A DNA stretch of 64,000 bases from a bacterium (GTDB lineage Bacteria; Gemmatimonadota; Gemmatimonadetes; Longimicrobiales; RSA9): contig QGVH02000005.1 of the NCBI GenBank assembly GCA_003242735.2, positions 17,055-81,054 of the forward strand, in the 5' to 3' direction. The position numbers and the translations under genes were made by a program. Within the stretch, counting starts at the first letter, position 1; every line of letters starts with the position of its first letter. This document shows positions 1 to 56,297 of the stretch, piece after piece. The notes under the pieces are model-generated. The model was not told the DNA's origin, ran no database searches, and was given only the letters and a program-made list of their open reading frames with translations.

Positions 1-475
1 CCGCCGCTTCACTCGGCGCTGCGGTCGCCGCGCCGATCCCTGAGCTCGTCTCTCTCGCCATCTCGACGGTCTCCTCGGTTCTCGTGCCGTCCCGGCGGCA
101 GCGTCGCCGCCGGGGAAAGGGTGATCTCTGCCCCCGCGCGCACCCGCTCTCCGGCGCACGGCGCGCGACGACGATTCCTCGGATCTATCGTGACCGGCGG
201 CGCTTACGGCCGCCGGATCCATGCCATTCCTCACCCCCGGGGTCGCCCAAACCTAACGTGAACCACCCCACCTCGCCACCCCGCGCCGCCCCCGCCACGG
301 GGTGCACACAGCGCCGCTGACGACGATCTCACCGACCCGACCACGGGACGGACCGCCGCCCGAACGCCGCCACGAGCCCCGCCCCACACCGTGTCGCTTT
401 CTCCTATGGCGCCGTCCAGCCGGCAAGGACATCCTCTACCCCGACCGTCCACCACCCGCATCCCGGAGCCGTCAC

Positions 476-1540
476 GTGAACGCCCTCGACCGCATCCTCG
501 GACCGAGCGACGCCGCCGCCGCACTCCGGGAGTTCGGTCGGCGCGCCGCCGCCGTCGACGCACCCGTCCTCCTCACCGGCGAAACCGGTACCGGCAAGGG
601 AGTGCTCGCCCGCGCGATCCACGAAGCATCGCGCCGGGCTCGCGGCCCCTTCGTCGCCATCAACTGCGCAGGCATCCCGGAGACCCTCTTCGAGAGCGAG
701 TTCTTCGGCCACACCCGCGGCGCCTTCACCGGCGCACAACAGTCCCACCGCGGCCTCTTCGAGCAGGCCGCCGGCGGCACCCTGTTCCTCGACGAGATCG
801 CGGAACTGCCGCTCCCGCTCCAGGCCAAGCTCCTCAACGCCCTCGAGGACGGCGAGATCCGCCGCCTCGGCGGCGAACGCACCGTCCGCGTGGACGTCCG
901 CATCATCGCCGCCGCAGGCATCGACCTCGAGCGCGCCGTCGCCGAGCGCCGCTTCCGCCGCGACCTCTACCACCGCCTGCTCGTCCTCTCCTGCCGTCTG
1001 CCCCCGCTCCGCGACCGCCACGGCGATATCGAGTTCCTCGCCCACCAGTTCCTGGACCGCTTCGCCCAACGCTACCAGGCCCCCGCCCGCACGTTCTCAC
1101 CCGCCGCCCTCGCCCGGCTCCAGGCCTACCCGTGGCCCGGCAACATCCGCGAGCTCGCCCACGCCGTCGAGGCCGCCGTCCTCGCTTGCGACGGCCCCAC
1201 CATCGGCGTCGCCCACCTCCCCACCACCGTCACCAGCACGCCCCCGCCGCTCACCCATGCCCCGATGGCACACGAGCCCAGCGCCGCCTACGCGTCCGCC
1301 CCACCAGCGCCCGACGGCGCCGGCGAGCCGCGTCCGCCGTTCCACCTCCCCCGCGGCCGCTACTCGTTCTACGGCTCCGAAGAGGAGGAACGGCGCCGCA
1401 TCGAGGAGGCGCTCCGCTTCTACCGCGGCAACAAGTCGCGCGCCGCCGCAGCGCTCGGCATGGCCCGCAACACACTCCGGCTCAAGCTCCGCCACTTCGG
1501 CCTCGATGGCCACAAGCGCGCGGAACCGGCCGGCCGCTGA
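476..1540 (+). CDS. sigma-54-dependent transcriptional activator (bEBP): AAA+ core plus C-terminal Fis-type HTH, no N-terminal sensory or receiver domain
   Basis: ORF 302..1540. Walker [15 protein letters not shown] loop ([10 protein letters not shown]), Walker B LFLDEI, C-terminal [23 protein letters not shown]. The in-frame GTG at 476 is preferred as start because the residues encoded by 302-475 look like Pro/Arg-rich non-coding translation. The start is uncertain. Confidence 0.9.
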
Positions 1541-1640
1541 CCACCCCGTGTCCCTGACCGCTATGGCCCCACGAACCATGACACGCCGGCAATTCGTTGC
1601 GCCACGGACCGTTGCGACCATGCGCCACGCCTCCACCCGC

Positions 1641-1873
1641 TCCGGCACGCCGCATGACCGATCCCCCGGCGCCACGAGCCGCGACCGGGGCGGATCGACG
1701 ACGTCGCCGCAACCCGCGTGGCCACCGCAACCCTGGATGCATCCCGGCCGGCGCCCGAACGCTGCTCGGCCCGGCCGCCGTCGGCCGTCGCTCGATTCGC
1801 CGCAGCGCCCGGCGCGCCTCGCGGGCACGATCGCCCACGCCCGCTCCGCGGGCCACACACCGGGAGGTTTGCC
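1641..1873 (+). promoter_or_regulatory. conserved leader A: GGCACG-N5-TGA element (1643-1658), palindrome GCCCGC-TCC-GCGGGC (1839-1853), SD GGGAGG (1862-1867)
   Basis: Alignable at nucleotide level with 3520-3659 upstream of the paralogous small gene. Copy A carries an insertion of about 85 nt between the two conserved blocks. Confidence 0.5.
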
Positions 1874-2200
1874 ATGCGCCACAGCAGCATCACGGGCTCC
1901 GTGCCCGCTCTCGCGCTCGTCCTCGCGTTCGCCGCCGCCGCGTGGGCCGACTGCGCGCCCTACATCTCCACGGGCATCAACGACCCGCCGGGCGTCGGCA
2001 CACTCATCGGCACCGAAACGCGGACCGAGGTCGTGCGGGAGACCATCGAGATCGTCGTCTCGGGCTCCGGTTCTGGCGCCGGCGGCTCGGTCAAGCGGAC
2101 GATCACCCGCGAGACGACACGCAGCTACCAGGTCGGCACGTACCTCATGAGCGACGGCTCGCGGGTCAGGGTCGATTGCAGCACCTACAGGTACATCTGA
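1874..2200 (+). CDS. small secreted protein (108 aa), Cys-bracketed, paralog of 3660..3953
   Basis: Internal ATG of ORF 1718..2200 preceded by GGGAGG. Sec signal peptide MRHSSITGSVPALALVLAFAAAAWA|DC. Shares the motifs LIGTE and VGTYLMxDGSRxRxxC with the paralog. Confidence 0.75.
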   Translation: MRHSSITGSVPALALVLAFAAAAWADCAPYISTGINDPPGVGTLIGTETRTEVVRETIEIVVSGSGSGAGGSVKRTITRETTRSYQVGTYLMSDGSRVRVDCSTYRYI

Positions 2201-2221
2201 GCAGGACCGGGGACCCGCTCG

Positions 2222-2248
2222 GTGGCGGCCGGACCGCCCGGCCGCCAC
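2222..2248 (+). terminator. GC hairpin after small gene A (11-bp perfect stem GTGGCGGCCGG/CCGGCCGCCAC, no U tract)
   Basis: Read directly from the sequence. An analogous hairpin follows the paralog at 3968-4001. Confidence 0.4.
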
Positions 2249-2282
2249 GCCCGTCCGGAACCACCAACCAGAGCGAGGCACC

Positions 2283-3311
2283 ATGCGCACCCGAACCCTC
2301 TCCGCCCTGCTGCTCCTCGCCGCCTGCGCCGCCTCCGACACCGAGCACCGATCCGCCGCCGACCCGCCGCTCATCGCCCGGGAGCTGATCGCCAGACGGG
2401 TCGCGAGCATCGCCGATGACTCGTTCCCGCTCACCACGCCGATCCGCATCCGACTCCTCGGAGACACCCTCGTCGTGGCGGACATCGGCGACGACCGCAT
2501 CGCGCTCTTCGACCGCGACCTCGAGCTGCTCCACGTCTTCGGCAGGAGCGGCGCCGGCCCCGGCGAGCTCCAGGGAGCGTTCGAGCTCGTGTGCGCGGAC
2601 GGCCTCATCGCCGTCGGCGACATGACCAACCAGCGGATCTCCTTCTTCACCCCGGACGGCCAGCTCGTCCGCGAGATCCGACTGGACGAGGCGCTCCGCA
2701 GCTTCGTGGTGGGCCCGGACGGATCGGTCTACCATGTGTCCATTTCGGGCCGCGACGCCCTCTTCACCGTCATCGCGCCGGACGGCACGCGCCGGCCCTG
2801 GGGCACCCGCCCGCCCGGGCTGCGGCCGGGCACGGACGACGGCAGGCGCGTCATCGAACAGGACGAAGTCCTTGCCCTCCGTACGCCCGACGGCGCGGTC
2901 CACGTGCTGGACAACCGGGAAGGCGTGCTCATCCGGTTCGACTCCGCCGGCGCCGTGCAACACACCGTGCAACTGCCACGCTGGCTGCTCGAGCCCATCC
3001 GCAAGCGGCACGAGGCACTCGCCCGCAGCCTGGCCCGGCAGGGCCTGCACGTCTACCCGGGCACCATCGCCAAGGACCTGTCCCTCACCTCCGACGGCCG
3101 TCTGCTCCTCGCCGTCGCCTCCGGCGATGTCGTCGCCGTCGTCGTGGACCCGGCGACCTACTCGCCCCGCGAGATCCGCGTCCCCGCCGGAGAGGGCCCA
3201 TGGGACGCGGCGCGCCGGGCCGTCAGCCTCGCGCTGCACGGCGACACCCTTTACGCCGTGACCACCGACGGCCTCTACGCCTTCGTCCTCGAGCCGGCGC
3301 AAGCCGGCTGA
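2283..3311 (+). CDS. NHL-repeat beta-propeller lipoprotein
   Basis: Lipobox LLLAAC near the N-terminus. Repeated NHL-like units (VVADIGDDRIALFD, GAGPGELQGAFEL, VGDMTNQRISFFTPDG). Confidence 0.8.
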   Translation: MRTRTLSALLLLAACAASDTEHRSAADPPLIARELIARRVASIADDSFPLTTPIRIRLLGDTLVVADIGDDRIALFDRDLELLHVFGRSGAGPGELQGAFELVCADGLIAVGDMTNQRISFFTPDGQLVREIRLDEALRSFVVGPDGSVYHVSISGRDALFTVIAPDGTRRPWGTRPPGLRPGTDDGRRVIEQDEVLALRTPDGAVHVLDNREGVLIRFDSAGAVQHTVQLPRWLLEPIRKRHEALARSLARQGLHVYPGTIAKDLSLTSDGRLLLAVASGDVVAVVVDPATYSPREIRVPAGEGPWDAARRAVSLALHGDTLYAVTTDGLYAFVLEPAQAG

Positions 3312-3331
3312 TCCTTCCAGCCCCTCCCTAC

Positions 3332-3385
3332 GACGCTCCGCGCCGCGCTCTCCCTGGGACGCGTCTCCACCCGGCGCGGAGCGTC
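3332..3385 (+). terminator. long hairpin downstream of the NHL gene (14-bp perfect arms GACGCTCCGCGCCG/CGGCGCGGAGCGTC)
   Basis: Inverted repeat read from the sequence, with an inner GACGCGTC palindrome in the loop. No U tract. It could alternatively be a protein-binding site upstream of leader B. Confidence 0.35.
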
Positions 3386-3519
3386 TCGACCACGAACGGA
3401 CGGAACTGCCCGGTCGTTGACCGCCCAACGCCCCATCCCGCCCTGCCCCCTGCCGCGACGATTGGGCTATAGGTCGCTGAATCACCGAAACTTACGACAG
3501 CGTGGCCCGGAGCAGGTCG

Positions 3520-3659
3520 CCCGGCACGCCGCGTGACTTCCCGATGGCCGCCACGGGCCGTGACGGGGCGGAGTGCGACGACGTCGCGGAGGACTCGCCC
3601 GGCGCGGACCGGAGGCGCGTCCATCACGCCCGCTCCGCGGGCCATGCCGGGAGGTTCCC
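3520..3659 (+). promoter_or_regulatory. conserved leader B: GGCACG-N5-TGA element (3522-3537), palindrome GCCCGC-TCC-GCGGGC (3628-3642), SD GGGAGG (3649-3654)
   Basis: Nucleotide-level homolog of 1641-1873. Confidence 0.5.
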
Positions 3660-3953
3660 ATGCGCAACTTCAACGTCAGGGCCTTCGTGCCCGCACTCGT
3701 CCTGTTGCTCGCGATCGCCACGGCCGTGCGCGCGAATTGCGCGAAGGAGCTGGCCCTGGGCGGGACGGACGGCACAGCGATCCTGATCGGGACGGAAGAG
3801 CGGAGGCAGGAGACCTACTTCCCGATCGTGGCGCCGCCGCTGGTCACCATGGGCTTCATCAAGATCGTGCACACCACCGAGGTGGGCACGTACCTGATGC
3901 CCGATGGGTCGCGGATCCGGATCACGTGCCAGGAGCAGTTCTCGCTCGGCTGA
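3660..3953 (+). CDS. small secreted protein (97 aa), Cys-bracketed, paralog of 1874..2200
   Basis: Internal ATG of ORF 3573..3953 after GGGAGG. Signal peptide MRNFNVRAFVPALVLLLAIATAVRA|NC. Motifs ILIGTEE and VGTYLMPDGSRIRITC. Confidence 0.75.
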   Translation: MRNFNVRAFVPALVLLLAIATAVRANCAKELALGGTDGTAILIGTEERRQETYFPIVAPPLVTMGFIKIVHTTEVGTYLMPDGSRIRITCQEQFSLG

Positions 3954-3967
3954 GCGGCAGCCGCCGT

Positions 3968-4001
3968 GGCCGGCCGCCGCGGCCCACGCGGGCGGCCGGC
4001 C
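3968..4001 (+). terminator. GC hairpin after small gene B (11-bp perfect stem GGCCGGCCGCC/GGCGGCCGGCC)
   Basis: Read directly from the sequence. No U tract. Confidence 0.4.
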
Positions 4002-4033
4002 CGGCCGGGGCGCAACGATACGAGGAGCGATCG

Positions 4034-4693
4034 ATGAAGCCACGCACCTTCGCCGTCACGCTCGTGAGCATCGCCATTGCCGGCGCGGCCGCCGTCCTCC
4101 ACACCGCCCTCCGCGGCCCCGATCCGATCCGCACGGTGCACATCGGCGCCGCGGTCGCGGAACGGGCCGCGGACGCCGGCGTCGCCATCGGCCCCGCGGA
4201 CGCAGCCATCGTCGTCCGCGTCTTCTCCGACTTCCAGTGTCCCGCCTGCCGACGGCTGGACGCCGAGGCCGGTGTCGTCCTCAGGCGCTGGGCCGCTGAT
4301 GGCCTGATCCGCTACGTCCACATCCACGCCCCCCTCCCCGCACACCGCCGCGGCCCCGCCGCAGCCGCGGCCTCCCACTGCGCCGCACGAGCCGGCAGGC
4401 CGTGGGACATGCACCGCATGCTCGCCGACCGCCTCCCGGAGTGGACCCAGGGCGAGCCGCCGGAGCCGAGGTTCGTGACCTACGCCCACGCCCTCGGCCT
4501 CGACACCACCACATTCGCCCTCTGCCTCACCGACCCCGCCACCGCCGAGCAGGTCCAGCGCGACCGGGCCGCCGCCCGCGCCCTCGCGCCGGACCGGGTG
4601 CCCGTCGTCTACGTCAACGAGGCCCTGATCGAGGGCCTGCGAGACCCCGCCCAGCTCGTGGACCACGTCCGGCGCCTCCTCCGCCTGCCCTGA
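4034..4693 (+). CDS. membrane-anchored DsbA-family thiol:disulfide oxidoreductase
   Basis: Internal ATG of ORF 3533..4693 after GAGGAG. N-terminal TM helix FAVTLVSIAIAGAAAVL. Thioredoxin active site FSDFQCPACRRL. Confidence 0.85.
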   Translation: MKPRTFAVTLVSIAIAGAAAVLHTALRGPDPIRTVHIGAAVAERAADAGVAIGPADAAIVVRVFSDFQCPACRRLDAEAGVVLRRWAADGLIRYVHIHAPLPAHRRGPAAAAASHCAARAGRPWDMHRMLADRLPEWTQGEPPEPRFVTYAHALGLDTTTFALCLTDPATAEQVQRDRAAARALAPDRVPVVYVNEALIEGLRDPAQLVDHVRRLLRLP

Positions 4694-4807
4694 CCCCGGT
4701 CAATGGCGCACCTTCGCGCTCCCGGTTAAGTTCACGCGTGGCGCCGCGCGGCACCGACCCCTACGGCCGCCGGCCGCCACGTACGGACTCCACTCCCTCG
4801 ATTCGTC

Positions 4808-6736
4808 ATGCTGGACACGATTCTCGAGACACTTCGCCGGCACGTCATCAGCCGGAAACTGGAGCCTGGTGATGTCGAGTACCTGGCATCCCAGGCCCGC
4901 GCCATCTGTTATCTGCCCGGCGCGTACATCTTCCGTGAGAGTCAGCCACGCCGCGAATTCGGCATCATCGTCCGCGGCCGCGTCGAGATCCGCAAACGGC
5001 ACCGCGGCCGCAACCAGGTCCTCGCCCTGCTCGGACCCGGCGACTCCTACGGCGAGGGCACGCTCCTCGACGACTACCCGCACTCGACCTCCGCCTACGT
5101 CATGGAGCCCGTCGAGGCGATCGAGTTCCCGCGCGAGACCATCATGCGCATCGCCGAAGAGCGGCCGATGCTCTACGCGCGGCTCGCCATCGCGGCCGCC
5201 CAGATCATCGCGATGCGGCTCCGCGCCGCCAACGCGCGCATCGCCGGCGGAGAGCAGATCTACCTGTCCGGCGAGCTGCGGCGTGAGAAGGACCTGCTCG
5301 GCGAACGCGAGGTCCCCGACCGCGAGTACTATGGGATCCAGACGCTGCGCGCCATCGAGAACTTCCCCATCACGGGCATCACGATCGCGCAGTATCCCCA
5401 CCTCATCGTCGCGCTCGCCGCAGTCAAGGAAGCCGCGGCCCGGGCCAATCAGGAGCTGGGCCTCCTCGACCCGACCATCGCGAACGCCATCATCGCCGCG
5501 TGCCAGGAGATCCGCGGCGGGGCGCTGCACAGCCACTTCGTCGTGGATGTCATCCAGGGCGGCGCGGGCACCTCGACGAACATGAACGCCAACGAGGTGA
5601 TCGCGAACCGCGCGCTGGAGATCCTCGGCAGACGCCGCGGCGAGTACCACATCGTGCACCCCAACAACCACGTCAACCTCTCCCAGTCCACCAACGACGT
5701 CTATCCCACCGCGCTCAAGATCGCGCTCATCTGGATGCTCCGCGACCTGGAGGTGGCGCTCGCCGCGCTGCGCGATGCGTTCCTGCTCAAGGCGGACGAG
5801 TTCGCCGACATCGTCAAGATCGGCCGGACCCAGCTCCAGGACGCCGTGCCGATGACGCTCGGCCAGGAGTTCCACGCCTTCGGCATCACGTTGGGTGAAG
5901 ACATCGAACGGCTGCGCGAGGCGGCCGGCCTCTTGTGCGAGATCAACCTGGGCGCCACCGCCATCGGCACGGGCATCAACACCGACCCGCGCTACGCGGC
6001 GCTGGTCCGTGAGCGCCTGGCGGAGATCACCGGCCTGCCGCTCGTCACCAGCCCCGACCTCGTCGAGGCCACGGCGGACACGGGCGTGTTCGTCCAGCTC
6101 TCGGGCGTGCTCAAGCGGGTCGCGACCAAGCTCTCCAAGATCTGCAACGACCTGCGCCTGCTCTCCAGCGGGCCGCGCGCCGGCCTCGGCGAGATCTCGT
6201 TGCCGCCCATGCAGCCGGGCTCGAGCATCATGCCGGGCAAGGTGAACCCGGTCATCCCCGAGGTCGTCAACCAGGTCTGCTACCAGGTGGTCGGCAACGA
6301 CCTCACGGTGACGATCGCGGCCGAGGCGGGCCAGCTCCAGCTCAACGTGTTCGAGCCGGTCATCGCCTTCAACCTCTTCCAGTCCATCGACATGCTCGAG
6401 CAGGCGTGCATCGTGCTGCGTGAACGCTGCGTTCTCGGCATCACGGCGAACCGCGAGCGCATCCGTCACCTGCTCGAGCGGAGCATCGGCATCGTCACCG
6501 CGCTCGTCCCGTACATCGGGTACGACCGCGCGAGCGCCGTTGCCCGCGAGGCGCTGGAGACCGACCGGGGAGTCTACGAGCTGGTGCTGGAGAAGGGCTG
6601 GCTGACCCGGGAGGAGCTGGACGAGATCCTGTCACCCGAGGCGATGACGCGACCGCGCCCGATGCCCGTGCTGCGCGGTCGCTTCGACAGCCAGGAGGAA
6701 GTCGCGGCGGCCCCGCACCAGCCGGCGCAGGGGTGA
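4808..6736 (+). CDS. aspA: aspartate ammonia-lyase fused to an N-terminal cyclic-nucleotide-binding-like (CAP effector) domain
   Basis: Residues from about 160 to the end match class-II fumarase/aspartase, including the signature GSSIMPGKVNP and the TNMNANEVIANRA and SQSTNDVYPTA motifs. The first 150 aa or so have the beta-roll pattern of cNMP-binding domains (GDSYGEGTLL...STSAYV). Confidence 0.9.
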   Translation: MLDTILETLRRHVISRKLEPGDVEYLASQARAICYLPGAYIFRESQPRREFGIIVRGRVEIRKRHRGRNQVLALLGPGDSYGEGTLLDDYPHSTSAYVMEPVEAIEFPRETIMRIAEERPMLYARLAIAAAQIIAMRLRAANARIAGGEQIYLSGELRREKDLLGEREVPDREYYGIQTLRAIENFPITGITIAQYPHLIVALAAVKEAAARANQELGLLDPTIANAIIAACQEIRGGALHSHFVVDVIQGGAGTSTNMNANEVIANRALEILGRRRGEYHIVHPNNHVNLSQSTNDVYPTALKIALIWMLRDLEVALAALRDAFLLKADEFADIVKIGRTQLQDAVPMTLGQEFHAFGITLGEDIERLREAAGLLCEINLGATAIGTGINTDPRYAALVRERLAEITGLPLVTSPDLVEATADTGVFVQLSGVLKRVATKLSKICNDLRLLSSGPRAGLGEISLPPMQPGSSIMPGKVNPVIPEVVNQVCYQVVGNDLTVTIAAEAGQLQLNVFEPVIAFNLFQSIDMLEQACIVLRERCVLGITANRERIRHLLERSIGIVTALVPYIGYDRASAVAREALETDRGVYELVLEKGWLTREELDEILSPEAMTRPRPMPVLRGRFDSQEEVAAAPHQPAQG

Positions 6737-15445: not shown

Positions 15446-15966
15446 GGCTCCGCCCGCCTGCCGACGCCCGCATCCAGCCCCCGCTCCGCCACGATGTGCC
15501 GGAGCAGCGCCGCGCACGAGCGCTCGACGATGTCGTGCACCTTCTCGAACCCCTGCGGGCCGCCGTAGTACGGGTCCGGCACGTCCAGGTCCCCGTGCGC
15601 CTCCGGGTCGAACTCGCGTAGCCGCATGACCCGCGGCGAGCGCACACCCGCCTCCGCCACCAGCCGCTGGACGTCCCGGAGGTTCATCTCGTCCATCGCG
15701 ATGATGTAGTCGAACCGCTCCGCATCCTCACGGCGGATCTGCCGGGCCCGCCCCGTCATCTCCACGCCCCGCGCACGGGCCACCCTCACCGTCCGCGGGT
15801 CCGGGCCCTCGCCCTCGTGATACGACGACGTGCCCGCCGAATCCACCTCGACCAGGTCCTCCAGCCCCGCCTCCTTCACCTGCTTGCGGAACACCGCCTC
15901 CGCCAGCGGCGAGCGGCAGATGTTGCCCAGACACACGAACAGCACCGACGTCTTCTTTCCAGTCAT
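15442..15966 (-). CDS. low-molecular-weight protein-tyrosine phosphatase
   Basis: P-loop VCLGNICRSP and a DPYYG Asp loop. Confidence 0.92.
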   Translation of the reverse strand: MTGKKTSVLFVCLGNICRSPLAEAVFRKQVKEAGLEDLVEVDSAGTSSYHEGEGPDPRTVRVARARGVEMTGRARQIRREDAERFDYIIAMDEMNLRDVQRLVAEAGVRSPRVMRLREFDPEAHGDLDVPDPYYGGPQGFEKVHDIVERSCAALLRHIVAERGLDAGVGRRAEP

Positions 15967-16327
15967 CTCTCGGCCCTTCCCCTGGTCCTGGGTCCAACCT
16001 CCCTGGCTCGGATACCCCTCGCCCTTCGCTCCGTGTCACACGGGCCCATGGAGATCACGGAGCAGCGCGCCGGGACCAGGCAGGATCCACCGCCACCGAA
16101 CGTTGACTCGCCCGCAGAGAACGACCATATCACGGATCAACGCGGACGCCGGGACGACTCCGCGGCGCGCCGGACACCGGAGCCCCCGGCCTCCCCGTGC
16201 TGCGCGCCTCCGCGTGAGCCCCTCGTGCTCCGCGTCTGGCTCATGCTCCCCCGCTCCCGCACGGACCCGGAAACAGCGAACGAACGCGCAGGTGGAGAAA
16301 ACCAGCAAACCGACGACGAGACCCACT

Positions 16328-17191
16328 ATGCCCGCCCAGCCCACGCGCCAGGTCTTCAGCCCGGACCTCCTCGCCGGCCGCACCGCCCTCATCACCGGCG
16401 GCGGCTCGGGCCTCGGCCTCGCCATGGCCCGCCGCTTCCTCGAACTCGGCGCCAGGGTCGCCATCGCCGGCCGCAGCGCCCAACGCCTCGAGGCCGCGGC
16501 GCGAGAGCTCGACGCCGGCGATGCGCTGCTCACACACACCGCCGACGTCCGCGACTTCGCTCAGGTCGAGGCGCTGGTCAACGCCACGGTCGAACGGTTC
16601 GGCGACCTGGACATCCTCGTCAACAACGCCGCGGGGAACTTCCTCGCCGCCACAGAAGAACTCTCGCCGAACGGCTTCCACGCCGTCGTCGCCACGGTGC
16701 TCCACGGCAGCTTCCACGCGACGCTCGCCGCCGGCCGACACATGATCCGGCGCGGCGGAGGCTCGATCCTCAACATCCTCACGACCTACGCGTGGACCGG
16801 CTCCGCGTTCGTGGTGCCCTCCGCAGCGGCCAAGGCCGGCGTCCTCGCCATGACCCGCTCCCTCGCCGTCGAGTGGGCCGCCTACGACATCCGCGTCAAC
16901 GCCATCGCGCCCGGCCCGTTCCCCACCGAGGGCGCGTGGTCCCGCCTCATGCCGTCACCGGAGCTCGAGGCCGAGGCGCGCGAGCGCATCCCCGCGGGCC
17001 GCTTCGGCGACCCCGCCGAGCTCGCCAACCTCGCCGCGTTCCTCGTCTCCGATGCGGCGCCCTACATCACAGGGGAGTGCGTCACGATCGACGGCGGCGG
17101 GTGGCTCGCATCGGGCGGCACCTTCAGCCACCTGACACGCCACGACCGCGCGGAAACGAAGGAGGTGTTCAGGAAGATCCGCGGACGCTGA
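16328..17191 (+). CDS. SDR-family oxidoreductase (2,4-dienoyl-CoA reductase-like)
   Basis: Internal ATG of ORF 15830..17191. ITGGGSGLG, NNAAGNF, SAAKAG, and ITGECVTIDGG at the C-terminus. Confidence 0.88.
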   Translation: MPAQPTRQVFSPDLLAGRTALITGGGSGLGLAMARRFLELGARVAIAGRSAQRLEAAARELDAGDALLTHTADVRDFAQVEALVNATVERFGDLDILVNNAAGNFLAATEELSPNGFHAVVATVLHGSFHATLAAGRHMIRRGGGSILNILTTYAWTGSAFVVPSAAAKAGVLAMTRSLAVEWAAYDIRVNAIAPGPFPTEGAWSRLMPSPELEAEARERIPAGRFGDPAELANLAAFLVSDAAPYITGECVTIDGGGWLASGGTFSHLTRHDRAETKEVFRKIRGR

Positions 17192-17211
17192 GTGCCGAAC
17201 CCGCCCGGCGG

Positions 17212-17484
17212 TCACCGCGGCAGACGGTACCGCCGGGGCAGGACCGCGAGGAAATGACTGCCACAGCTCAGGCACTGGCGCCACCGCAGCCGCGGCATGC
17301 GGGGCGAGAAGAGCGCCGCGCGCGGCGTCGGCTGATCCACTTCCTTGGTATAGCGCGATCCGCAGTCGGGGCACGCGCGGCCACGCCCACCGACCTTGGC
17401 ACCGCTGTCAGAGCCCGAATCCGAATCCGGCACGAAGAGAGCGCACATATCGGCGTCAGCCCCATCCAGGTCGTCACGGGTCAT
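17212..17484 (-). CDS. hypothetical zinc-ribbon protein (90 aa)
   Basis: Two CxxC pairs (CPDCGSRY ... CLSCGSHF), an acidic N-terminus, and mostly G/C at third codon positions. Confidence 0.5.
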   Translation of the reverse strand: MTRDDLDGADADMCALFVPDSDSGSDSGAKVGGRGRACPDCGSRYTKEVDQPTPRAALFSPRMPRLRWRQCLSCGSHFLAVLPRRYRLPR

Positions 17485-17920
17485 CGCGCCGTGCCCCCCG
17501 TCGTGCCACCTGGCCTGCCCCCTGGCGGCGGGGGCCTGCCACCCGCCAGCCCGTGCGGTCTCCGGTCACACGTGCCGACGAGGTGGTCAGGCACCCCGCC
17601 ATCGACCCTGACTGCGGCTCCGGGGAGAGCCACGGCGGCCCGCGCATTGGTCAATGACCGTGCCAGCCACGCAGGGCGCACGAGTGCTGGATTTGCCGAG
17701 CCAGCCGCGCACCGCCGGCGGCCAGAGTCACGAATTACGACGACAGCTTGTAGCGGGAGCGCCACATGCGATCCGCGATCAACCCATCGCTGCACCCGCA
17801 GTTGCGTCACGGCCGAAGCACCCGCGCGCCGCGGCTTGCCCCACCGCTTCGGCAGCCCTTATCCTCCGTTCCGGTTCGACCGACGCGGACTCCTCCGATC
17901 CTCGTCCAGTGAAGCCGACC

Positions 17921-19387
17921 ATGCGGCCCCTCGCTCCATCACCCGGCGACGTCCCGCGTCGCCCGCTCCGCATCCTGACCCTGATCGCGGCGCTCCTGCC
18001 GCTCGCTGCCGAGGCGCACGGGCAGCCACGGGCGGATCTCGCCGCGCGCGTGGACAGCCTGTTCGCCGAGTGGGACCGACCGGGCTCGCCCGGCTGCGCC
18101 CTCGGCGTCGTACAGGATGGCCGCCTCGTCTACGCCCGCGGGTACGGGTACGCCAACCTCGATCACGACGTCCCGATCTCGCCGAAAACGGTCTTCTACA
18201 TCGCGTCCGTCTCCAAGCAGTTCACCGCAGCGAGCATCGTGTTGCTCGCCCAGCAGGGCGCGCTCTCGCTCGACGACGACGTGCGCACCTACATCCCGGA
18301 GCTTCCCGACTACGGCGCGCCGATCACGATCCGGCACCTGATCCACCACACCAGCGGGCTGCGCGACTACCTCACACTGATGCTGCTCGCCGGGATGCGA
18401 CTCGAGGATGTGCACACGGACGAAGAGGTCCTCGACCTGGTGACCCGCCAGGAGGCGCTCAACTTCACGCCCGGCGAGCGCCACCTCTACAGCAATACGG
18501 GCTACCTGCTGATGGCGGAGATCGTACGCCGCGTCTCGGGCAAATCGCTGCGAGAATTCGCCGACGAGCACATCTTCCGCCCGCTCGGCATGACCAGCAC
18601 CCACTTCCACGACGACCGGACCATGGTCGTCCGCAACCGAGCGATGGCGTACGCGCGGAACGAGGACGGCTCCTACCGCCTCGATATGTGGACGAACTTC
18701 GACAAGGTCGGCTCCGGTGGCCTGCTGAGCAGCGTCGAGGACCTGGCGCTCTGGGACCTGAACGCCGAGCACCACACGGTCGGCGGCGCCGCGCTGCGCG
18801 AACAGATGCTCGAGCGTGGCGTGCTGAACAACGGTGACACGCTCGACTACGCGTTCGGTCTCGTTCTCGGTGAGTACCGGGGCCTCCGCACGGTGAGCCA
18901 CAGCGGCGGCTCAATGGGGTTCCGGGCCCACCATTTGCGCTTCCCGGACGAACGCTTCGCCGTGATCTGCCTGTGCAACCTCGGCTCCATCGACGCGGCC
19001 GGCCTCGCGCGCCGCGTCGCGGACATCTACCTCGAAGACCGCTTCCCCGAGCCGCCGCAGGCGACCCGCGCGTCCGGGCCGGCCCCCCGCGCCGGCGATG
19101 CCGCCTCCCCGTTCCCGGCGCCGGCCGAGGCAGCGCTGGCGGAGTTCGCCGGCCGGTACCACAGCGATGAGTTGCGCGTCACCTACACGCTCGCGGTGGA
19201 GCGGGGTCGCCTGGTCCTCCACGGCCGGAACGCCCCGCCCGCCACGCTCCAGGCCATCGGTCCCGACCGCTTCCGGGCCGATGGCGTGGCGCTGCGCTTC
19301 GTGCGCCACGACTCCCGCAACATCACAGGATTCGTGCTGGACGCCGGCCGCGTGCTCGGCCTGCGGTTCCAGCGCGTACCGGAGTGA
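17921..19387 (+). CDS. serine hydrolase of the class-C beta-lactamase/penicillin-binding family
   Basis: Internal ATG of ORF 17654..19387. Signal peptide. SVSKQF (SxxK) and YSNTGY (YxN). Confidence 0.88.
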   Translation: MRPLAPSPGDVPRRPLRILTLIAALLPLAAEAHGQPRADLAARVDSLFAEWDRPGSPGCALGVVQDGRLVYARGYGYANLDHDVPISPKTVFYIASVSKQFTAASIVLLAQQGALSLDDDVRTYIPELPDYGAPITIRHLIHHTSGLRDYLTLMLLAGMRLEDVHTDEEVLDLVTRQEALNFTPGERHLYSNTGYLLMAEIVRRVSGKSLREFADEHIFRPLGMTSTHFHDDRTMVVRNRAMAYARNEDGSYRLDMWTNFDKVGSGGLLSSVEDLALWDLNAEHHTVGGAALREQMLERGVLNNGDTLDYAFGLVLGEYRGLRTVSHSGGSMGFRAHHLRFPDERFAVICLCNLGSIDAAGLARRVADIYLEDRFPEPPQATRASGPAPRAGDAASPFPAPAEAALAEFAGRYHSDELRVTYTLAVERGRLVLHGRNAPPATLQAIGPDRFRADGVALRFVRHDSRNITGFVLDAGRVLGLRFQRVPE

Positions 19388-55444: not shown

Positions 55445-55860
55445 TCCCGCGAAAGCCCTGGAAGCCGGCGGTTCCATCGAGATCGGAGCGCCGCCGTTCA
55501 ACGGGCCGGGACCGGCACCGTTCGAGGGTCGCGAAAGCCAGCCCTTCAACGACGCGCGACTCCACACGCGCTCGAGCAGATCGCCGATGGATCCGGCGGA
55601 CCGGCGGGGCGACGCCCGCCCGCCGCTGGCGAACGGCCGGTCGAGGACGCGCGTTCCGCGGTGGTGTCCGGTCCCGTGCGCGCCGCGACCGTTCCGGGGG
55701 CGGGTCCCTCCCCGGGCGCGTCTCGCACCGCCTGTCGGATGCTCATGCCCGCTGCGTTGCAGACACACAACAAACCGCTGCCCGCGACGCCTCGCCAACA
55801 CCGACGGCCAATCCAGCCTATGCCCTGAGGAGACAAGGCGCTCCCGACGGAAGGACCGGC

Positions 55861-55876
55861 TGGCACGCCGCCTGCC
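55861..55876 (+). promoter_or_regulatory. near-consensus sigma-54 promoter TGGCACG-CCGC-CTGC
   Basis: Matches TGGCACG-N4-TTGC in both the -24 GG and the -12 GC, with correct spacing. Located in a gene-free gap. About one chance match is expected per window from base composition. Confidence 0.35.
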
Positions 55877-56035
55877 GATCCACCCGGGCGTCGCAGCGTT
55901 CGGCGACTGCCGTGCGCTGTCTGCCCGAGCCGCAGGGCAGCACTGACGTCTGACCGTCCGCCCTGGGCGCTCTCCCCCGGCGCCCCGCATCACGCGCGGC
56001 GCCGAACCGGGCCCGCCACCCCGTATCTCCCCCGG

Positions 56036-56058
56036 GGTCGGCGGGCCCGACCGTTTTT
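56036..56058 (+). terminator. candidate intrinsic terminator GGTCGG-CGGGC-CCGACC-G-TTTTT
   Basis: A short GC stem followed by T5, which is rare in this DNA. Lies about 170 nt downstream of the sigma-54-like promoter. Confidence 0.35.
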
Positions 56059-56297
56059 CGGCTGCCCCTCGGGCGAAGACGGCCCCCTTCCTCAGACCAC
56101 CGCCTATCCCTATTCTCTCCTTGCCGCGACCACACCCAGCGAGGAGAACGACACCCCATGACCCGCGCTGTTGCCTCTGCCAGCGTCCGGGCCTTCGTGA
56201 GCGGGGAGCCGCATGCGTGGCGCACACCCGCCGCCTTCGCACCGGCGGCCGCCAGCCGTCGGAAGGAACCGACAGCACCGCACACGGCCCGCGAGCG

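Follow-up and report, generated by a model that had tools for sequence, protein, structure and literature searches.

Organization of the locus

The DNA analysed here (hereafter the window) comprises 64,000 nucleotides (nt) from an uncultured Longimicrobiales (Gemmatimonadota) bacterium. Near its start, in a region with a G+C content of about 72%, lie two paralogous genes, A and B, for small secreted proteins, each preceded by a copy of the same non-coding cassette: a 15-nt core motif, a variable spacer and a conserved leader. The gene of an enhancer-binding protein precedes the first copy. Here we describe the cassette and its occurrence in related loci, and weigh whether it is a sigma-54 promoter followed by a regulatory 5' untranslated region (UTR). 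The following elements make up the locus.

476..1540, + strand: gene of the enhancer-binding protein (activator); Pfam PF00158 (218 bits), PF25601 and PF02954
1670..1873, + strand: leader A, full-length form, 5' UTR of about 205 nt as counted from the predicted start
1874..2200, + strand: small secreted protein A, 108 amino acids (aa), with a signal peptide and two conserved cysteines
2283..3311, + strand: gene for a 342-aa protein, the second of unit A and in synteny at every locus; weak match of the NHL/beta-propeller-like type
3332..3385, + strand: terminator-like hairpin 3' of unit A with a perfect 14-bp stem, z = -4.1
3549..3659, + strand: leader B, short form, 5' UTR of about 112 nt as counted from the predicted start
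3660..3953, + strand: small secreted protein B, 97 aa, with 39% amino-acid identity to protein A
4034..4693, + strand: DsbA/thioredoxin-like protein, second gene of unit B; Pfam PF13462 and PF01323

According to Pfam the activator combines three parts, an AAA+ domain for interaction with sigma-54 in which GAFTGA is intact, an AAA lid and a Fis-type helix-turn-helix (HTH), and it lacks an N-terminal sensor domain. It is the sole open reading frame (ORF) of the window that carries GAFTGA. Its architecture is PspF-like and it aligns over its full length with the PspF profile TIGR02974, at 268 bits under a cut-off of 443. The five flanking proteins scanned included no recognisable PspA-like product, and no HrpV-like partner was recognised either. 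An earlier note on this DNA, made from the window alone, had placed a sigma-54 activator gene directly upstream of the cassette; this is correct, and the gene adjoins the cassette in every complete locus recovered.

No T tract follows the hairpin between the two units. Its position after the 342/343-aa gene is kept, with a different sequence, in the related loci L001 (5685-5727) and L013 (8535-8569), as would be expected of a terminator between units A and B. With such a hairpin standing between unit A and leader B, unit B would need a promoter of its own.

Related loci

Searches with the proteins and look-ups of identical proteins recovered relatives as metagenome contigs and in two NCBI metagenome-assembled genomes (MAGs). 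At NCBI, the homologues of A and B are assigned to Longimicrobiales MAGs, phylum Gemmatimonadota. Clade 1 comprises the window, L001, L007, L021, L015, L016, L011 and L028; clade 2 comprises L013, L023, L025, L027 and L036. The order activator, A, 343-aa gene, B, DsbA-like gene, aspartase fusion, GAF kinase and HU is kept in the relatives.

The cassette stands upstream of each of the two small paralogues at all related loci recovered, that is in about 13 lineages of two clades (Longimicrobiales MAGs and metagenomes). Whether the leader recurs upstream of homologous small genes, a check that the earlier note had proposed, is thus answered in the affirmative. A leader profile searched with nhmmer matched every locus exactly twice, with no further hit in the window. 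A metagenome-wide scan with the pattern motif-N30-45-CGACGAC returned 71 stretches, seven of which are real leaders and near-duplicates of loci already recovered, the remainder being mostly chance matches. The cassette is limited to one narrow lineage and to these two genes. A dispersed repeat or mobile element, similar to repetitive extragenic palindromes or miniature inverted-repeat transposable elements, was rejected, since there are only two copies in the window and in relatives they always stand before the same two genes. The only more distant genomic relative found, the Gemmatimonadales MAG L020, encodes a remote homologue of the small proteins (5989-6288) in the context of a GMC oxidoreductase-like ORF and a DUF4382 ORF; at this locus no leader, no adjacent activator and no convincing sigma-54 site (best 7/12) were found.

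Similarity of the two copies

The A and B intergenic regions align from CCGGCACGCCGC onward. The leaders are 85% identical over 136 aligned positions, and size-matched random fragments of the window give 0.70 +/- 0.04 (one aligner). The coding sequences (CDS) with 68% nucleotide identity (random 0.65 +/- 0.03) and the 100 nt 5' of the motif with 55% (random 0.63) are both at random level. A shared non-coding cassette at 1641-1873 and 3520-3659, as described in the earlier note, is therefore real. The 20-mer CACGCCCGCTCCGCGGGCCA, which spans the palindrome near the 3' end of the leader, is exact in both copies and occurs at no other site in the 64 kb, where about 0.18 matches would be expected even with up to three mismatches. 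The GGCACG-N5-TGA elements that had been reported were found at 1644-1657 and 3523-3536; the window holds three such sites versus 0.96 expected, and two of the three are those of the leaders.

The reading frame across the leaders is disrupted by 1-nt indels among orthologues, which upholds the view that conservation is at the DNA/RNA level with no shared frame. For the same reason a leader peptide or antisense ORF was rejected, the overlapping ORFs being typical high-GC artefacts.

The core motif as a proposed promoter

The positions below are numbered relative to the predicted transcription start.

1644..1658, + strand: motif A, GGCACGCCGCATGAC, found in 16/16 complete leaders; GG at -25/-24, GA at -13/-12, with A1657 as -12
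1659..1669, + strand: variable 11-nt spacer of copy A; predicted transcription start at about 1669
3523..3537, + strand: motif B, GGCACGCCGCGTGAC; GG 3523-3524 at -25/-24, A3536 as -12; predicted start at about 3548

All 16 complete leaders have the 15-nt motif with consensus GG[C/T]AC[G/A]CCGC[G/A]TGAC, at 229-237 nt from the ATG in the long form and 134-137 nt in the short form. Conservation, expressed as majority fraction over the 16 copies, amounts to 0.97 in the motif, 0.69 in the 3 nt on its 5' side and 0.64 in the 11-nt spacer, after which it returns to 0.88. The spacer has 16 different sequences in 16 copies while its length is nearly constant, and the renewed conservation begins about where a sigma-54 start site would fall. 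In this succession of a near-invariant island, a variable 11-nt spacer and renewed conservation, the motif resembles a core promoter and the sequence beyond the spacer a functional transcript.

The class of promoter is suggested by the arrangement GG-N10-GA, which occurs with fixed spacing in all complete leaders and agrees with the GG-N10 spacing of sigma-54. Variation is confined to C/T at -23, G/A at -20 and G/A at -15, and GG, AC and TGA never vary. Positions -23, -20 and -15 are among the less constrained ones in known sigma-54 promoters. The motif is the sole sigma-54-like site common to all copies, and a scan of 1-5000 identified no sigma-70-like site. Two other readings were dismissed. 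The only recurrent canonical GG-N10-GC site, (T/C)GGATGCATCCCGGCC in the middle domain of the leader, is a poor match to the consensus and is missing in the short forms; on the reverse strand the motif reads GG-N11-GC, with wrong spacing and direction.

Several points weigh against a sigma-54 promoter. The extended consensus TGGCACG-N4-TTGCW is matched at 8/12 positions only: GGCACG and TG match, and T-26, T-15, C-12 and W-11 are absent. Of the GC at -13/-12 the G is present, the C being replaced by an invariant A. The CCGC in the centre of the motif is also invariant, which recognition by sigma-54 does not explain. No RpoN box was found in the window or the recovered relative loci, such that the presence of sigma-54 is deduced from the activator only.

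The missing C has precedents. The -12 C is conserved in 96% of known sigma-54 promoters, where it restrains basal transcription, and is not strictly conserved at promoters with activator-bypass transcription (PMC4551910). Natural -12/-11 variation linked to RpoN paralogues has been reported (PMC3162934), hence a lineage-specific -12 preference may apply here. That one non-C base is fixed in every copy across two clades suggests it has been selected. The description of the motif as sigma-54-like in the earlier note thus holds as regards its core-promoter-like conservation, its being the sole shared site of this kind and the adjacent GAFTGA activator, and is weakened by the invariant A at -12.

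Islands upstream of the motif

Multi-species alignments identified three weaker islands, U1 to U3, that are common to A and B and lie at about -55 to -150.

391..410, + strand: third copy of U2, GTGTCGC-N7-TATGGC, 66 nt before the start codon of the activator and conserved in six of six orthologous regions
1517..1542, + strand: U1 of copy A, GCGCGGAACCGGCCGGCCGCTGACC, which covers the end of the activator reading frame, its stop codon included, and is shared with the non-coding region before B in relatives
1548..1567, + strand: U2 of copy A, GTGTCCC-N7-CTATGGC, at about -100 to -120 from the predicted start; putative activator site
1593..1618, + strand: U3 of copy A, with TTGCG at about -72 and again 15 nt further on, at about -57
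3399..3498, + strand: islands of copy B (U1 3399-3422, U2 3427-3449, U3 3473-3498), from the multi-species alignment

U1 reads GCGGAACCG.CCGG.CGCTGACC. The earlier note had the similarity start abruptly at the motif, which is not the case, as the islands reach about 130 nt 5' of it, into the 3' end of the activator gene. The break looks abrupt in the window because U2 and U3 of its copy B are partly decayed. In both clades the sequence GTGTCCC-N7-YATGGC precedes leader A, leader B and the activator gene (copies of L001 at 2743-2762 and 3900-3919). Since U2 also precedes the activator's own gene it is the best candidate for an activator binding site, serving autoregulation and target activation, or else could belong to another type of promoter. 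The islands show no clear dyad symmetry, which adds to the points against activator-driven transcription from the motif. Compared by eye, their spacings do not fit sigma-70, extracytoplasmic function (ECF) type (GGAAC-N16/17-CGT) or sigma-32-like promoters.

The sole A/T-rich patch 5' of the motif is at 1591-1602 of the window (CAATTCGTTGCG) and reads ATCAATTC(A/C)TTG in some relatives (A leaders of L013 and L015). Located at about -80, between U2 and U3, it resembles the core WATCAANNNNTTR of integration host factor (IHF) sites, a likeness that is speculative. A gene of the HU/IHF family lies a few kb downstream in relatives.

Motif and islands together could also be read differently, the motif being an operator for a dimeric transcription factor and the promoter lying further upstream, for instance at the GTGTCCC-N7-YATGGC island or the TTGCG repeats; the motif would in that case belong to a longer region that is transcribed or regulatory. 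Indeed, CACGCCGCGTG forms a dyad, CACG-N3-CGTG, of which copy B has a second instance 28 nt downstream; an operator would accommodate the invariant CCGC centre and the lack of a -12 C, and conserved islands lie 5' of the motif in both copies, one of them also before the activator gene. However, the dyad is broken in 7/16 copies (CACA...CGTG in five, CACG...CATG in two), whereas GG and TGA, which lie outside it, never vary. The upstream region offers no -35/-10 pair of the sigma-70 type within 1-5000 and its islands are unlike the other classes compared, and the variable spacer with renewed conservation beyond it fits a core promoter better. We therefore regard the operator as unlikely and retain the sigma-54 promoter as the preferred reading of the motif.

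The leader and its predicted structure

The structural elements of the leader are as follows.

1671..1688, + strand: 5' strand of helix P1, copy A, pairing with 1809-1826 (RNAalifold, pair counts)
1695..1705, + strand: palindrome H2, CGACGACGTCG, copy A, in a block conserved in all copies
1714..1803, + strand: middle domain, a long hairpin of two stacked helices, absent from the short B form
1809..1826, + strand: 3' strand of P1, copy A (RNAalifold, pair counts)
1839..1853, + strand: predicted hairpin P3, copy A, GCCCGC-TCC-GCGGGC
1862..1867, + strand: Shine-Dalgarno GGGAGG of gene A, read from the sequence
3546..3621, + strand: long stem-loop of copy B from a single-sequence fold, with P1 formed by 3546-3570 and 3596-3621 and capped by the GCGACGACGTCGC hairpin (3575-3587)
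3628..3642, + strand: predicted hairpin P3, copy B
3649..3654, + strand: Shine-Dalgarno GGGAGG of gene B, the first Gs of which can pair with the upstream YCC in an extended P3

Leaders occur in two forms, which differ by a block of about 90 nt. The earlier note had taken this block for an insertion of about 85 nt in copy A. The alignments do not bear this out: the block belongs to the full-length leader and occurs, with 86% conservation, in every A leader as well as in the B leaders of clade 2 (L013, L023, L025, L027). It is absent from the B leader of the window, which represents the short form. The polarity of this change is uncertain, as the clade-2 B leaders could have regained the block from A by conversion.

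RNAalifold applied to 11 full-length leaders predicts a long-range P1, the internal long hairpin, P3 and a free Shine-Dalgarno sequence. An independent run on seven short-form leaders predicts the same P1, now closing directly on the GCGACGACGUCGC hairpin, and an extended P3 in which YCC pairs with GGGAGG. P1 fits both forms and, in the predicted fold, brackets exactly the block that distinguishes them. In the alignment of 16 sequences 95.3% of the cells of the model are paired, versus at most 41% in slid controls, and 12 cells are changed on both sides, a number reached by 0/500 shuffles. At pair 37-194, A-U occurs in 11 copies and G-C in five, with a G-U intermediate in L100, and at pair 116-135 UA, AU, GC and GU all occur. 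The helices contain 30 G-U cells versus five A-C cells, which favours RNA of the + strand. The perfect palindromes at 1839-1853 and 3628-3642, which had been described correctly, correspond to P3; its stem is invariant in 16/16 copies, its loop varies in sequence and length (3-4 nt), and it is located 8-12 nt before the ribosome-binding site. P3 is not a candidate intrinsic terminator or attenuator, as there is no U tract and the stem is followed by CCACACACC or CCATGCC; a terminator scan of 1-5000 was empty.

Other results count against a selected RNA fold. Pairs with changes on both sides number only three, which 226/500 shuffles reached, in a set of closely related sequences; several cells of P1 are mismatched; the folding energy of the leaders is no better than that of composition-matched shuffles (z = +0.06 for A, +0.44 for B); and the dyad of CGACGACGTCG is broken in all clade-2 copies (CGACGACGACG), which speaks against a role of this dyad in RNA or DNA. 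Leader identity among orthologues (0.81-0.87) is moreover similar to that of the neighbouring CDS, and selection is unprovable from rates alone because divergence is too low. Rfam 15 has no match at gathering thresholds in the whole window and none at E <= 5 on 1400-4100. The compensatory changes that the earlier note had proposed to look for are few (2-3 pairs), and the P3 stem does not vary. The leader fold is plausible, not established.

If the blocks 3' of the motif do not act as RNA they might act as DNA sites, promoter-proximal or downstream, for the activator or another protein, and both the short palindromes, CGACGACGTCG and GCCCGC-N3-GCGGGC, and the lack of excess thermodynamic stability are what one would expect of such sites. 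We nevertheless consider this quite improbable, for a DNA site should not lose its dyad throughout one clade as CGACGACGTCG does, nor should its half-site spacing shift, as the P3 loop of 3-4 nt would impose; P1, moreover, joins segments about 140 nt apart and tolerates G-U and rarely A-C. A structured 5' UTR remains our preferred interpretation of the leader.

Gene conversion between the leaders

Both paralogues are present in both clades and their duplication is therefore old. The earlier note had argued from the diverged CDS that the similarity does not reflect a recent duplication. This is correct for the duplication itself, but it disregards more recent exchange, since gene conversion between the paralogous leaders, evident from the alignments, inflates the A/B similarity. 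At 12 columns that are diagnostic for A versus B in clade 1, the A and B leaders of clade 2 agree in 10/12. Leader A of the window has the B-type state at 4/12 of these columns (39, 44, 50 and 188 of alignment A9, which consists of window 1641-1876 and 3520-3662 plus relatives). In L013 and L023, leaders A and B of one locus share 85-87% identity, as compared to 79% between A of the window and A of L013.

Taken to its extreme, conversion could account for most of the similarity by concerted evolution, most of the leader having no specific function. The shared states listed above as well as the unremarkable folding energy fit this explanation. Conversion would, on the other hand, hardly keep a motif invariant while the adjacent 11 nt differ in 16/16 copies of the same tract; it leaves the invariant P3 stem with its variable loop and the compensated changes in P1 unexplained; and the clade-1 A and B leaders differ at many positions and keep the same elements. 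Concerted evolution as the main cause has, in our estimation, a low probability. The similarity would rather result from selection on the elements of the cassette together with occasional gene conversion.

Protein products, neighbouring genes and other sites in the window

Proteins A and B both have a signal peptide and two invariant cysteines, of which the first directly follows the predicted cleavage site and the second lies close to the C-terminus. The predicted structure of protein A is rich in beta-hairpins, at low confidence (predicted local distance difference test, pLDDT, 67), and a Foldseek search with this model gave no significant match in the PDB. The small-protein family comprises 63 clusters at 50% identity among 1.84 billion representatives and is distributed more broadly than the leader.

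Downstream of unit B the following gene was identified.

4808-6736, + strand: fusion of a domain binding cyclic nucleotide monophosphates (cNMP) and aspartate ammonia-lyase, 760 bits to the subfamily model

This aspartate ammonia-lyase, with the cyclic-nucleotide-binding domain at its N-terminus, is a fusion that is syntenic in all relatives. A GAF histidine kinase adjoins it on the opposite strand.

Elsewhere in the window a near-canonical sigma-54 site, CTGGCACGCCGCCTGCC (GG-N10-GC), is found at 55860-56062 (+), in a gene-free stretch of about 850 nt. It is followed by about 175 nt that fold into four hairpins with a minimum free energy of -112 kcal/mol versus -86 in shuffles (z = -5.8) and that end in a terminator-like hairpin plus TTTTT (about 56036-56060). 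The segment 55860-56062 is a candidate sigma-54-dependent small RNA; it matches no Rfam family at gathering thresholds, and the recovered relative loci contain no counterpart of it. The site CTGGCACGCCGCCTGCC shares GGCACGCCGC with the cassette motif, which we counted in favour of the sigma-54 reading of the latter. Another GG-N10-GA site, TGGCACGGTCATTGAC at 17650-17665 (-), lies inside an ORF of the opposite strand (15817-18837) and is probably a chance match.

Comparison with known systems

The closest parallels are pspF-pspA of E. coli and hrpRS-hrpL of Pseudomonas syringae, in which a -24/-12 promoter likewise stands with an adjacent sensor-less activator made of AAA+ with GAFTGA and a Fis-type HTH. 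The cassette shares with their promoters the GG-N10 spacing, GGCACG at -24 and TG at -14/-13, as well as conserved islands about 55-150 nt upstream, and target genes that encode envelope or secreted proteins. It differs from them by the invariant A at -12 and the lack of T at -26 and -15, by the absence of a recognised PspA- or HrpV-like partner, by a dependence on RpoN that is putative here, and by the duplication of the promoter along with a long conserved leader. The targets fit the proposal that sigma-54 controls the cell exterior (PMC3162934). Natural sigma-54 promoters with a non-consensus -12 position also miss the C (PMC4551910); unlike in these, the base is here fixed in every copy of two clades.

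As in structured 5' leaders such as riboswitches, ribosomal-protein leaders and RNA thermometers, there is a long predicted 5' UTR with higher conservation than the sequence around it, a model of several helices ending in a hairpin beside the Shine-Dalgarno sequence, recurrence before homologous genes and some compensatory change. Unlike these, the leader has no Rfam 15 match, no excess folding stability and a very narrow distribution, and its gene content suggests no ligand or protein partner. The Qrr RNAs of Vibrio and enterobacterial GlmY/GlmZ are sigma-54-dependent small RNAs. They too have a sigma-54-type promoter before a conserved non-coding RNA segment, whereas the leaders described here run straight into an ORF with no terminator, which makes them UTRs and not stand-alone small RNAs. 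The cassette is a real, undescribed and lineage-restricted promoter-leader unit of a familiar general kind.

Proposed function and significance

The explanation that we prefer, with about as much confidence as doubt, is that the cassette combines a non-canonical sigma-54 promoter with a regulatory 5' UTR. Each unit, A with the 342-aa gene and B with the DsbA-like gene, would be under its own promoter-leader cassette. The motif would be a core promoter of the sigma-54 class with GG at -25/-24 and TGA replacing TGC at -14 to -12. The PspF-like activator encoded directly upstream would bind at least one of the upstream islands and drive sigma-54 polymerase from the motif, and U2 before its own gene would permit autoregulation. 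Transcription would start about 12 nt past the motif, at about 1669 and 3548. In the resulting 5' UTR, P1 would close a folded domain, which in the short B form keeps the same fold minus the internal hairpin domain. The leader probably acts on the stability or translation of the mRNAs of two envelope-directed units, whose products would be small disulfide-bonded proteins, a propeller-like protein and a DsbA-like protein. Within this scheme, the analysis shows the pattern of conservation, a spacing that suits sigma-54, the neighbouring activator gene, the recurrence in relatives and the fit of P1 to both leader forms, whereas dependence on sigma-54, the start sites, the sites bound by the activator and the role of the leader are inferred. 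A more far-reaching version, which we advance tentatively and think unlikely, is a two-layer switch peculiar to one Longimicrobiales lineage, in which the fixed A at -12 loosens the lock on basal transcription and a new structured leader RNA controls output after transcription by sensing a protein or small molecule tied to disulfide stress in the envelope, the short B form being the minimal RNA.

The practical reach of these findings is limited, as the cassette occurs in a single narrow lineage without cultured members and would control genes that lack an assigned function. To our knowledge there are almost no regulatory data on Gemmatimonadota. The proposed scheme, if true, would assign targets to a sensor-less activator in this phylum. 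The leader is an undescribed candidate cis-regulatory RNA, with a built-in comparison of a long and a short form. Finally, if dependence on RpoN proves true, the cassette would be a naturally fixed sigma-54 promoter without the -12 C, in two clades and two paralogous copies, and hence a natural test of the role of this C.

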